Source: Candidatus Bathyarchaeota archaeon (GTDB taxonomy: Archaea; Thermoproteota; Bathyarchaeia; 40CM-2-53-6). From it: a stretch of DNA of 19,462 nucleotides. The translations under genes were made by a program, and so were the position numbers. Below are positions 9,246 to 11,607 of this stretch, one piece after another. Position 1 is the stretch's first letter. Every line of letters begins with the position of its first letter. A model generated the notes under the pieces. The model made no database searches and was not told the origin of the DNA. It saw nothing but the letters and a program-made list of their open reading frames with translations. The stretch spans positions 1 to 19,462 of the forward strand of contig CAWHWX010000011.1 of assembly GCA_963833125.1 (NCBI GenBank). The letters run 5' to 3'.

Positions 9246-10219
9246 ATGCCCATTATTCATGTCACGCCAGTGGGCTTCGAAAGCCTGGGCGTCAGGTCCA
9301 TGTGTACCTTTGTTGAGACGCCCGACGTTAGGATACTGATTGACGCGGGCGTAGCGTTGGGGCCTCGTCTTAGGAGGTTACCGCACCCGCGAGAGTACAA
9401 GGCTCGAAATGAATGCCGTGCAAGAATTCGAAACTACGCGGCGAAGGCAGATGCGATTGTAATCTCACACTATCACAATGACCACCATACACCAAACTAC
9501 ACGGAAAACGTCTGGCTCGGATCGAGTGCAGATGAAGCGGAAGAGATCTATCGCGAAAAAACTGTTCTGCAAAGGATATTCGTAACGCAATAAACTTCAA
9601 CCAGCGGAGGAGGGGCTGGATGTTTCAACGCTTCGTGAAACGGATCGGCAGTAAGTGTGAGATAGCTGACGGTAAAATGTTTGACTTTGGAGCAACCAAG
9701 ATCACGCTCTCGCAGCCTGTGCCTCATGGAGAGGAGAGTTCCGGCTTGGGGTGGGTCCTTATGACTTGCGTTAGGTCAGGAGAGGAAACTTTCCTGCACG
9801 CTTCCGACGTTCAAGGACCGATGTCCAAGGAAACGGCCAAACTGATACTTGAAGGGAAGCCAGACTGTCTTGTGCTTGGAGGCCCACCCACGTATCTCGA
9901 AGGGGTGAGAGTGGCTCAAGCGCCGATTCAGGCAGGCATCGAGAACGCCTCTAGACTTGCAAGTAAGATACCAATCATAATCTTTGAACATCACATACTC
10001 CGCTCCGAAAAATGGAGGGAGCAATCAAACTCGGTATATGATGCCGCCTCAAGCGCCGAGCATAAGGTCATGACTGCGGCTGAATACCTCAAAACCCCAA
10101 ACATGCTTCTAGAGTCTCAGCGGGAGCAGTTGTATGAGGAAGAGGCTCCATCGCCAGAGTTCATGAAATGGACTGAGCTTCATCGAGAGAAAAAACGGTT
10201 ACAGCCTCCTCCAGTCTAG
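9246..10219 (+). CDS. UPF0282 family MBL-fold metallo-hydrolase; one frameshift near 9565
   Basis: ESLGVRSMCTFVETPD, IDAGVALGP, ISHYHNDH, PVPHG, HASDVQGP, GGPPTYL and EHHILR. Confidence 0.92.
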
Positions 10220-10688: not shown

Positions 10689-10847
10689 ATGAACGGAGAT
10701 TCAAAGCGAAGCTTTGCTGTAGCCCTTGCTTCATTCGCGATAGGCGCCGTAGTCGCCGGAGTACTCGGAAACCCGAGAACACGTCAGCGTATCGCTGTCG
10801 CGAGCAAGAAGCTGGCTAAGAGAGCTAAGGCAGCTGACCTAGCGTAA
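10689..10847 (+). CDS. 52-aa single-TM protein with basic amphipathic tail (YtxH-like architecture)
   Basis: MNGDSKRSFAVALASFAIGAVVAGVLGNPRTRQRIAVASKKLAKRAKAADLA*. Strong RBS GAGGAGGT, own TATA box and downstream hairpin. Not in the ORF track. Confidence 0.75.
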   Translation: MNGDSKRSFAVALASFAIGAVVAGVLGNPRTRQRIAVASKKLAKRAKAADLA

Positions 10848-10859
10848 ACAACCCACACG

Positions 10860-10892
10860 GGGGCGGTAAACAAACCGCTCCTTTCCTCTCAT
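10860..10892 (+). terminator. Hairpin plus pyrimidine tract
   Basis: GGGGCGGT-aaacaa-ACCGCTCC followed by tttcctctc. Confidence 0.55.
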
Positions 10893-11004
10893 TCTAAAGT
10901 TCGAGTCTGATCCTTTGTCGCCTTTTCCTGGGACAATCCTAAGGTGTTGGCCTCAGAAGGATTCTAGGAAAGCTTAATTCTCAATCCGAATTACCATTGG
11001 AATC

Positions 11005-11068
11005 AGGGCGCGTGAGTGGGGCCTCCCACCCGATTGCGCCAAAGAAACCCCGGAGTAGGGAGGTAATT
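11005..11068 (+). ncRNA. Structured 5' leader of queT; candidate riboswitch or K-turn-containing cis-regulatory RNA
   Basis: GGCGCG/TGCGCC outer stem, GTGGG/CCCAC inner stem, A-rich linker AAAGAAA then CCCC. Anti-SD CCTCCC (11022-11027) complements SD GGGAGG (11058-11063). BRE/TATA-like gaaagcttaatt at ~10968-10979. Confidence 0.5.
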
Positions 11069-11070
11069 AG

Positions 11071-11607
11071 ATGAAAGCTAAGAGTTCAATCAATATCGCA
11101 TTGACCGCAGTATTCGCCGCAATTTACGCCCTAGGCGTAGTATTTCTTGCCCCAATCAGTTTTCAAATCTTCCAAGTTAGAGTAGCAGATGCCCTGCTGC
11201 CTCTCGCTATGCTATTCGGTTGGCCTGCCGTTCTAGGACTATCACTAGGTGCTTTCGTTGCAAACATATTCGGAGGCCTTGGGCCAGTCGATATGGTTGG
11301 AGGTTCAGTAGCGAATTTCATAGCGACGTTCCTCGCCTGGCGATTGGTAGCCAGCAGGGGAAGGCGTTGGGCGTTGGTTGGAGTTGGGGCAGAGATTGTT
11401 ATCGTCACGCTCGTGGTTGGATCCTACTTGAGCTACCTACTCGCTATGCCGATAGAAATCAGCTGGCTAGGGGTCTTCCTAGGAAGCGTAATCGCAATTG
11501 GAGTGCTCGGATCGATACTGTTCTTTGCACTCTCAACTGAAAGAGTTTCAGCCCTGTTGAGATCATACGGTCTAGGAATCTACACGCAGCGGCCCGAGAA
11601 AAAGTAG
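11071..11607 (+). CDS. queT: QueT transporter family protein (ECF S-component for 7-deazaguanine precursors)
   Basis: AVFAAIY..LAPISF..FQVRVADALLPL..GLSLGAFVANIFG..GPVDMVGGS, the QueT signature. Multi-TM. Confidence 0.9.
   Translation: MKAKSSINIALTAVFAAIYALGVVFLAPISFQIFQVRVADALLPLAMLFGWPAVLGLSLGAFVANIFGGLGPVDMVGGSVANFIATFLAWRLVASRGRRWALVGVGAEIVIVTLVVGSYLSYLLAMPIEISWLGVFLGSVIAIGVLGSILFFALSTERVSALLRSYGLGIYTQRPEKK

Follow-up and report, generated by a model that had tools for sequence, protein, structure and literature searches.

Archaea use the 7-deazaguanine base preQ0 directly for archaeosine and, to our knowledge, very few riboswitch classes are known among them, none being specific to this domain. 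Bacterial queT genes are described as subject to preQ1 riboswitches in two accounts (PMC5372724, PMC11625349); the second, a 2024 review, lists three preQ1 classes for bacterial phyla only, and the word 'archaea' does not occur in its text. The present analysis concerns a queT gene on a stretch of 19,462 nucleotides from a Candidatus Bathyarchaeota archaeon (contig CAWHWX010000011.1 of assembly GCA_963833125.1), hereafter the window, and the leader that precedes this gene at positions 11005–11070. Comparison across genomes indicates that the leader is a real and widespread structured RNA. It is probably an archaeal translational OFF riboswitch, in which a pseudoknot would bury the Shine–Dalgarno (SD) sequence upon binding of a 7-deazaguanine, most likely preQ0.

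According to the review (PMC11625349), members of preQ1-I (types 1–3) fold into an H-type pseudoknot with a short G+C-rich helix P1 and an A-rich loop L3 after the P1 3' strand. Their second helix, P2, of 3–4 bp, is formed by the 3' tail and includes SD bases, and expression is turned OFF by SD occlusion. The aptamer measures ~34 nt, its specificity cytosine sits in a UC/AC motif directly 5' of the P1 3' strand, and the 7-deazaguanine genes under its control include queT. PreQ1-II also lies upstream of queT (COG4708/DUF988) and controls translation only, the SD being fully contained in the pseudoknot helix; this class has an HLout pseudoknot, helices P1–P4 and U-A-U triples, and is given for Bacillota only. 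In preQ1-III (RF02680) the HLout aptamer is set apart from the SD, and a separate anti-SD:SD helix forms on ligand binding.

Conservation and distribution of the leader RNA

The gene behind the leader had been named queT in a preliminary description of the window, and a Pfam match bears this out (Table 1). The sequence elements listed in that description are all present where it had placed them. When the QueT protein was searched against 41 related genomes, orthologues were found in 30, and the 220 nt located 5' of each were compared. A block of ~60 nt is near-identical between orthologous loci whose QueT proteins share only 38–50% identity, and the DNA flanking this block is unrelated. The block is present at 27 of 32 QueT loci; the other five harbour distant QueT paralogues (30–35% identity) behind a different gene. 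These QueT-like proteins (L025–L029 in relatives, with further copies on contigs C12, C26 and C38 of the window's own genome) are encoded directly 3' of a conserved membrane-protein gene, are not preceded by the motif and probably serve as S components for a different substrate.

The 27 orthologous leaders (alignment A1) served to build a covariance model, R1, which spans 64 positions and contains only two helices, P1 and P2. R1 matches occur in 91 of 151 sampled genomes of the window's class, in 71 of 94 high-quality genomes and in 53 of 80 genera. The preliminary description had proposed that archaeal queT leaders be checked for conservation and covariation: both are found, the latter in P1 and in the anti-SD:SD helix described below. 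Nearly all R1-positive genomes of the class hold a single copy of the motif, and the window's own genome holds three. In a sample drawn from the whole phylum 28 of 151 genomes have matches, including families outside the class (9/15, 3/3 and 2/2).

An IUPAC pattern of the invariant core retrieved at least 120 stretches from a genome collection and at least 120 from metagenomes. Among the genome-collection matches listed, R1 confirmed 96 of 120; all 96 belong to records that are archaeal by title, and the 24 rejected stretches are all bacterial. The confirmed titles are mostly Bathyarchaeia or Bathyarchaeota, joined by some Methanomethylicota, Nitrososphaerota/Nitrosopumilales, Promethearchaeota and Hodarchaeota, all of these being submitters' labels. 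Among the metagenome matches listed, 111 of 120 were confirmed, 100 of them new sequences. The habitats named in record titles include peat, soil, sediment and hot-spring-labelled bins.

Two mutually exclusive folds

Model position 1 corresponds to window position 11005 and, owing to an extra A at 11033, any position n ≥ 29 corresponds to 11005+n. The helices were examined on alignment A2 (~99 rows), built with a model that did not contain helix P3, on a second set, A3, and on a metagenome set, A5. The features discussed are collected in Table 1.

Table 1. Features of the queT leader, its promoter region and its gene (window coordinates)
Feature	Model positions	Window positions	Strand	Basis
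Promoter-like element: purine-rich GGAAAG, similar to a B recognition element, then TATA-like box CTTAATT (10973–10979)		10967–10979	+	Alignment of 189 upstream regions
P1, 5' strand GGCGCG	3–8	11007–11012	+	99% of cells paired; compensatory changes at two of six pairs
Near-invariant UGAG: start of L1 (pseudoknot state), 5' side of internal loop (hairpin state)	9–12	11013–11016	+	Base counts
P2, 5' strand GUGGG	12–16	11016–11020	+	Pairing and own covariation
P3, 5' strand CCUCCCACCCG: anti-SD CCUCCC, A24, C25, CCG	18–28	11022–11032	+	Covariation
L2: single U at 11034 (U29); A at 11033 is a rare insertion	29	11033–11034	+	Base counts
P1, 3' strand UGCGCC	30–35	11035–11040	+	Pairing and covariation with P1 5' strand
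L3: A-rich linker, AAA (11045–11047) then CCC (11048–11050)	36–45	11041–11050	+	Base counts
P3, 3' strand CGG-A-GU-A-GGGAGG	46–58	11051–11063	+	Covariation, duplex energy
queT coding sequence, 178 aa, predicted regulated gene		11071–11607	+	Pfam PF06177, E 2.5e-27, 96.4 bits against a cut-off of 33.7

P1, recognized in the preliminary description, changes in sequence while remaining paired: at pair 7/31, 67 of 99 rows have G-C and 32 have C-G, and the outer pair 3/35 is seen as G-C, A-U, U-A and G-U. In P2 the pairs 12–15/22–25 are 97.3% paired, U-A being exchanged for C-G or G-C at 13/24 (11017/11028) and A-U being found at 12/25. Because the alignment was fitted to a model of P1 and P2, it leans towards these two helices. 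P2 is absent from some divergent members (L117, L121, L130 and L214).

P3 joins the anti-SD CCUCCC (11022–11027) to the SD GGGAGG (11058–11063) through pairs 18–23/53–58, and continues with 24-51, 25-50 and 26–28/46–48; the bulged A49 and A52 occupy positions that both vary freely. Mutual information singled out pair 23/53 (C-G 151, U-A 11), which lies outside the R1 model. Loops joined to their own SD give duplexes of −12.88 kcal/mol and loops joined to permuted partners −11.38 ± 0.13; none of 300 permutations was as low as the former value. P1 and P3 taken together are 96.0% paired on A2 (90.6% after shuffling), with a covariation of 0.169 against 0.081; the corresponding values are 94.2% against 89.7% and 0.159 against 0.081 on A3, and 94.4% against 90.7% and 0.117 against 0.060 on A5. 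On each of the three alignments 0 of 500 shuffles reached the observed level. When the partner strand was slid out of register on A2, pairing fell to 45–57%. Moreover, the anti-SD:SD pairing is kept through full replacement of its sequence (CCUCCU/AGGAGG and CACCUCC/GGAGGUG), and divergent members exchange the whole helix (CCUUCC/GGAAGG, GCUCCC/GGGAGC, CCGAC/GUCGG, UCCGAC/GUCGGA, ACAUCUC/GAGAUGU and GUCUC/GAGAC). In L117 and L121, which are devoid of P2, P3 is a continuous helix of 8–9 bp with one bulge that runs straight into CCG (26–28):CGG (46–48).

P2 and P3 cannot coexist because both use positions 22–25 (window 11026–11029). The P2 5' strand would therefore act as an anti-anti-SD, since it and the tail seek the same partner, the 3' half of the anti-SD strand. 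The preliminary description had proposed both the anti-SD:SD pairing and its incompatibility with the GUGGG/CCCAC hairpin, and the two helices indeed covary each in its own right.

P1 and P3 together would form an H-type pseudoknot, in which S1 is P1, L1 comprises positions 9–17, S2 is P3, L2 is U29 and L3 comprises positions 36–45. The unpaired bases that do not change all cluster at the P1/P3 junction: A40, A41, A42, C44 and C45 are each present in 191 of 191 distinct instances, so that the A-rich tail of the preliminary description has an invariant AAA, and within UGAG the counts are 190 (U9), 171 (G10), 159 (A11) and 182 (G12) of 191. The leader thus combines a conserved, covarying structure with invariant unpaired bases, as riboswitches in general do. 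In known small pseudoknot riboswitches the ligand site is such a junction, as PMC11625349 has it and, by analogy with preQ1-I in the same review, L3 would lie in the minor groove of P1. Taken as a whole, the leader is almost certainly a genuine cis-regulatory structured RNA.

Not all the pairings put forward for this leader withstood comparison. The pseudoknot between GGGG (11018–11021) and CCCC in the preliminary description shows a covariation of 0.041 against 0.038 after shuffling, and 169 of 500 shuffles attain this level. Among 99 rows, 19 and 34 respectively lack two of the four pairs, the C residues stay constant opposite a variable G16 and G17, and mutual information gave no signal for 14–17 with 43–46. 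This element is to be replaced by the longer P3 pseudoknot. The preliminary description therefore stands in part: P1, the A-rich linker, the anti-SD:SD helix, its exclusivity with the hairpin, the TATA-like box and queT are retained, and the GGGG:CCCC pseudoknot and the K-turn-like loop considered below are not. A role of GGAG (11052–11055) as a decoy for the anti-SD is unsupported because the base at 49 is not conserved (A 92, U 44, G 34 of 191). A tail variant, AAAACCCGG, with A instead of C at model position 43, is found mostly with a UCUCCC anti-SD loop and an SD end of GGGAGA or GGGAGG; its carriers are L071, L080, L099, L100, L106, L112, L184, L202, L225 and L247–L251. The resulting correlation between U18 and A43 extends over at least two lineages, is inconsistent, and is explained by no pairing scheme.

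Regulon and genomic setting

The gene following the motif in 193 distinct genome instances is queT in 174 cases (157 by BLASTP and 17 by a hidden Markov model built from those 157), queE in 5, queC and then queT in 1, an unknown membrane protein of 229–234 aa in 6, and an unknown 277-aa protein, with queC behind it, in 1; the contig ends in the remaining 6. The best NCBIfam matches of the five queE products are all QueE, with E between 1e-25 and 1e-35, and so are their top five families; queC (n = 1) matches TIGR00364 with 195 bits against a cut-off of 150. The 111 metagenome instances conform to this picture, with queT in 99, the same membrane-protein family in 6, queE in 2 and contig ends in 4. 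Wherever there is enough downstream sequence, in 187 of 187 genome and 107 of 107 metagenome instances, the motif stands in cis to queT, queE, queC or a putative transporter. The operons include motif-queE-GATase::QueC, motif-queE-queC and motif-queC-queT. No gene of another known pathway, whether of purine salvage, purine synthesis or otherwise, lies behind the motif in the 193 genome and 111 metagenome instances, the only other products being two membrane proteins without a family.

The protein found in the place of queT is a multi-pass membrane protein of 229–245 aa, present in 6 of 193 genome instances (L044:1565–2263 and L063:1068–1772, both on the + strand, L043, L065, L140 and L206) and in 6 of 111 metagenome instances (L267, L268, L283, L302, L349 and L315). 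Its 232-aa representative and the 277-aa protein have no Pfam or NCBIfam family, and their BLASTP comparison with QueT is insignificant. The nearest ESM Atlas clusters of the 232-aa type are automatically named 'ECF transporter S component' (ECF, energy-coupling factor; score 0.94), which is a lead only. This ECF-like protein is a candidate for a new 7-deazaguanine transporter. In one motif-led operon a DUF2848 protein (L237:6744–7415, + strand, 209.7 bits) is encoded behind queE and GATase::QueC, which suggests a possible link of DUF2848 to 7-deazaguanine metabolism.

The window's own genome encodes an archaeosine tRNA-guanine transglycosylase (358 bits, the cut-off being 350) and, on another contig, QueD, QueC-like and QueF-family proteins, the QueF-family match being weak (27.8 bits against 27.3). 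The transglycosylase (contig C15, 14916–16269; L255/L256) falls into two pieces, covering profile positions 1–254 and 250–439, in overlapping open reading frames (ORFs): either the gene is split or frameshifted, or this is a two-gene arrangement. A second motif and queT copy resides on contig C16 (438141–438740; L031/L039). Its QueT is 97% identical and its upstream sequence is different, which points to a recent duplication or to the binning of two strains, the contamination estimate of the assembly being 7%. The third copy, on contig C27 (L089/L254), precedes queE and queC (motif at L254 589–652, queE at 649–1304, queC at 1480–2229) and has GCUCCC/GGGAGC as its anti-SD:SD pair. This queE is distributed over two frames (ORFs of 124 and 138 aa), which indicates a frameshift or an assembly error.

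As regards transcription, the TATA-like box that the preliminary description had noticed ahead of the leader recurs in the 189 upstream regions that were aligned on the start of the motif: an A/T-rich box occupies a constant place in them, −32 to −26 relative to that point (position −28: A 62, T 105), and follows an A-rich stretch (−38 to −33). Archaeal TATA boxes are usually separated from the transcript start by ~26 nt; given this spacing and the position of the box, the queT transcript would start at about 11002–11006, a few bases before P1. The queT start codon lies 7 nt 3' of the SD. A single DNA contig of low depth matches 11005–11056 exactly and diverges 5' of 11005, which is consistent with the motif boundary. 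Two RNA contigs of low depth are available from public runs: one spans only 10694–10905, that is the upstream gene, and the other, 151 nt long and from a relative, matches 11050–11200; both are uninformative as to transcript start or level. Scans for sigma-70 promoters and intrinsic terminators, models not applicable to archaea, returned values equal to the shuffled expectation.

Further upstream, 10689–10905 contains a 52-aa ORF with a hydrophobic segment (a weak LapA_dom match), then a G+C-rich hairpin (10856–10885) and a T-rich run. The same arrangement of small gene, hairpin and T-rich run is found 5' of the motif at several orthologous loci, and the metatranscriptome contig 10694–10905 coincides exactly with this region. 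Two adjacent ORFs on the + strand, 9246–9593 and 9620–10219, may represent one gene broken by a stop or a frameshift: the product of the former covers no more than the N-terminal portion of a metallo-beta-lactamase fold (Pfam Lactamase_B, positions 6–56 of 196), and the latter has no family match.

A candidate preQ0 riboswitch and its alternatives

In the mechanism proposed here, 11005–11064 (~60 nt) would constitute both the aptamer and the expression platform of an archaeal translational riboswitch, placed where the transcript begins or close to it. Without ligand, P1, the internal loop and the P2 hairpin would form, leaving the SD free and queT translated. With ligand, the 3' half of the upper hairpin, CCUCCCACCCG, would pair with the tail CGG..GU..GGGAGG, generating an H-type pseudoknot of P1 and an 11-bp P3 in which the entire SD is buried and the A-rich L3 is placed along P1. 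The ligand would be held at the P1/P3 junction, among UGAG, U29, AAA, CCC and CCG:CGG, and is predicted to be a free 7-deazaguanine base, most likely the archaeosine precursor preQ0. Abundant preQ0 would then shut off its own import (queT and the ECF-like S component) and, in other lineages, its own synthesis (queE, queC).

A riboswitch is favoured because the RNA is far better conserved than the gene, probably occupies the 5' end of the mRNA, has two exclusive covarying folds, keeps its junction bases invariant and is tied to a one-metabolite regulon. Direct sensing of a small molecule by the leader itself seems likely on this comparative evidence. PreQ0 is the likeliest ligand, and OFF the likeliest logic, because the regulon resembles that of bacterial preQ1 riboswitches and archaea use preQ0 directly. 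The SD-hiding 7-deazaguanine OFF switch of the preliminary description thus finds bioinformatic support in the conservation, the covarying SD helix, the association with queT, queE and queC and the lack of a preQ1 match in Rfam.

This last point merits some detail. PreQ1-I and preQ1-II are represented in Rfam by RF00522 and RF01054. A cmscan of 10800–11200 at E up to 10 gave no preQ1 match and no family over the leader, the three matches elsewhere or on the other strand being at chance level, and 20 diverse motif loci (92,683 bases) gave no match to any Rfam family at gathering thresholds. These results agree with the mismatch to preQ1-I remarked upon in the preliminary description. The topology is nevertheless that of preQ1-I, with a short G+C-rich P1, an A-rich L3 after the P1 3' strand and a tail that pairs back into the P1 loop to give a second helix with SD bases; 7-deazaguanine genes including queT follow in both cases, and the same OFF logic is predicted. 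In contrast to the short P2 of preQ1-I, P3 measures ~11 bp and would bury the whole SD; where preQ1-I has its UC/AC motif, the leader has G28-U29(-U30), in 188–191 of 191 instances; an additional invariant CCC-CGG and a built-in competitor hairpin, P2, are present; and all the leader records are archaeal among the matches listed, whereas preQ1-I is given for bacterial phyla. With preQ1-II the leader shares its place upstream of queT, the predicted control of translation and the enclosure of the SD in the pseudoknot helix, and with preQ1-III a distinct anti-SD:SD helix. Its fold is H-type with an A-rich L3, not HLout, its SD-pairing strand belongs to the conserved core, unlike the aptamer of preQ1-III, and neither class has an Rfam match here. 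SAM-II and SAM-V are small bacterial H-type pseudoknots in which a ligand at the triplex or junction stabilizes an SD-containing helix. The folding principle is alike; ligand, regulon and host domain differ, and there is no Rfam similarity. The leader would thus resemble preQ1-I and preQ1-II in its working and is a member of neither, because of the missing model match, the missing UC/AC motif, the longer SD helix, the extra CCC-CGG and the competitor hairpin. If it senses preQ0 as predicted, it would constitute a hitherto undescribed riboswitch class: no account of an archaeal queT or preQ0 riboswitch was found in the literature, a search that did not extend to supplementary motif lists (for instance the 224 candidates of PMC5737381) or to many subscription journals, where a prior description is possible.

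Several observations weigh against this reading. The ligand is assigned solely through the associated genes, whose QueE matches fall below the NCBIfam equivalog cut-offs, and the choice of P3 as the ligand-bound fold comes from the location of the invariant bases and the logic of the regulon. Within P3 the CCG:CGG pairs at the base are invariant and, carrying no covariation for that reason, are neutral evidence. Pairs 24-51 and 25-50 are the weakest, being unpaired in 13–21 of about 90–99 rows, and their double changes, seen in A2 and A3 (e.g. U-A 6–8 times), do not recur in A5. Kinship among sequences can by itself outdo column shuffles, even where no structure exists; stronger evidence than the shuffles comes from the whole-helix replacements and the control in which the partner was slid. 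The fold of the single leader is unexceptional (z = −1.11; P1/P2 hairpin −24.6 kcal/mol), so that the case is founded on comparison across genomes and not on folding energy. Finally, the P3 two-strand duplex is worth −18.7 kcal/mol against −8.1 (duplex) or −7.8 (hairpin) for P2. Nearest-neighbour energies, in which pseudoknot loops cannot be scored, hence give no indication that P3 needs a ligand in order to form.

L7Ae is in wide use among archaea, and in the window UGA opposite CCGAU could form tandem G-A pairs, a kink-turn (K-turn)-like loop that had led the preliminary description to consider an L7Ae-bound leader. That P2 and P3 are chosen by a protein, either L7Ae or a dedicated translational repressor of 7-deazaguanine genes, is nevertheless improbable. 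The K-turn requires the A at 11033, an insertion present in 6 of 191 instances, and CCGU without this A is found in 175; the conserved tandem sheared G-A pairs beside a 3-nt bulge that mark an L7Ae site are thus lacking from the family. No conserved regulator gene accompanies the motif at the loci examined, and ~20 near-invariant unpaired bases at a pseudoknot junction, kept in several lineages before different genes of one pathway, are the usual signature of a small-molecule aptamer. The same junction pattern is explained more simply by a small-molecule pocket than by mimicry of a tRNA D-arm, recognized or modified by the archaeosine transglycosylase so that occupancy or base exchange reports preQ0 status, which is the least credible of the alternatives. 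The near-invariant A-G-U-G-G (11015–11019) is presumably similar to A14-G15-Y16-G18-G19 of the D-loop, which surrounds the modified site of the tRNA, and a bacterial tRNA-guanine transglycosylase is said to be able to modify an mRNA in vitro. The likeness extends over just five bases, the variants UAGGUG and UG-GUG alter it, and the P2-less members lose the GG.

A riboswitch for a ligand other than preQ0, be it a different compound of the pathway (7-carboxy-7-deazaguanine, preQ1, the archaeosine base or queuine) or a general purine, for example guanine, is unlikely, though slightly less so than a protein site. QueE and QueC act at steps preceding preQ0, which is the free-base end product used by the archaeal tRNA-guanine transglycosylase; this enzyme is present in the window's own genome, and purine genes are missing from the regulon. 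On the other side, gene association cannot separate closely related 7-deazapurines, the weak QueF-family match leaves room for preQ1, and the substrate range of QueT is experimentally unsettled according to PMC5372724. The stability of P3 raises one more alternative: the SD might be masked by default, with the pseudoknot opened by a ligand or by temperature, as in an ON switch or an RNA thermometer, or it might damp translation constitutively. This is highly unlikely. A thermometer or a damping device would need neither the invariant unpaired bases nor the strict link to one pathway, it is hard to see why an ON switch should induce the synthesis of a product together with its import, and the motif occurs in records from many habitats.

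The evidence leans, by a narrow measure, towards a joint reading of these observations. As a riboswitch class restricted to archaea the leader would be the first of its kind, as it would among natural classes tuned to preQ0; its SD-burying helix would be part of an H-type aptamer, and a built-in competitor hairpin would set the ON state. In Bathyarchaeia it would be chiefly responsible for regulating the import and synthesis of 7-deazaguanines, and it would mark the 232-aa ECF-like protein as a new 7-deazaguanine transporter. The motif also occurs in records titled Methanomethylicota, Nitrososphaerota and Asgard archaea. If this is true, SD-sequestering riboswitches with a compact, conserved aptamer for the archaeosine precursor operate in uncultured archaea. 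The motif would then serve to recognize 7-deazaguanine salvage and synthesis in the genomes of Bathyarchaeia and related lineages, point to an unannotated transporter family, and add a new small RNA fold that structural studies could address and archaeal genetics could employ as a regulatory part.

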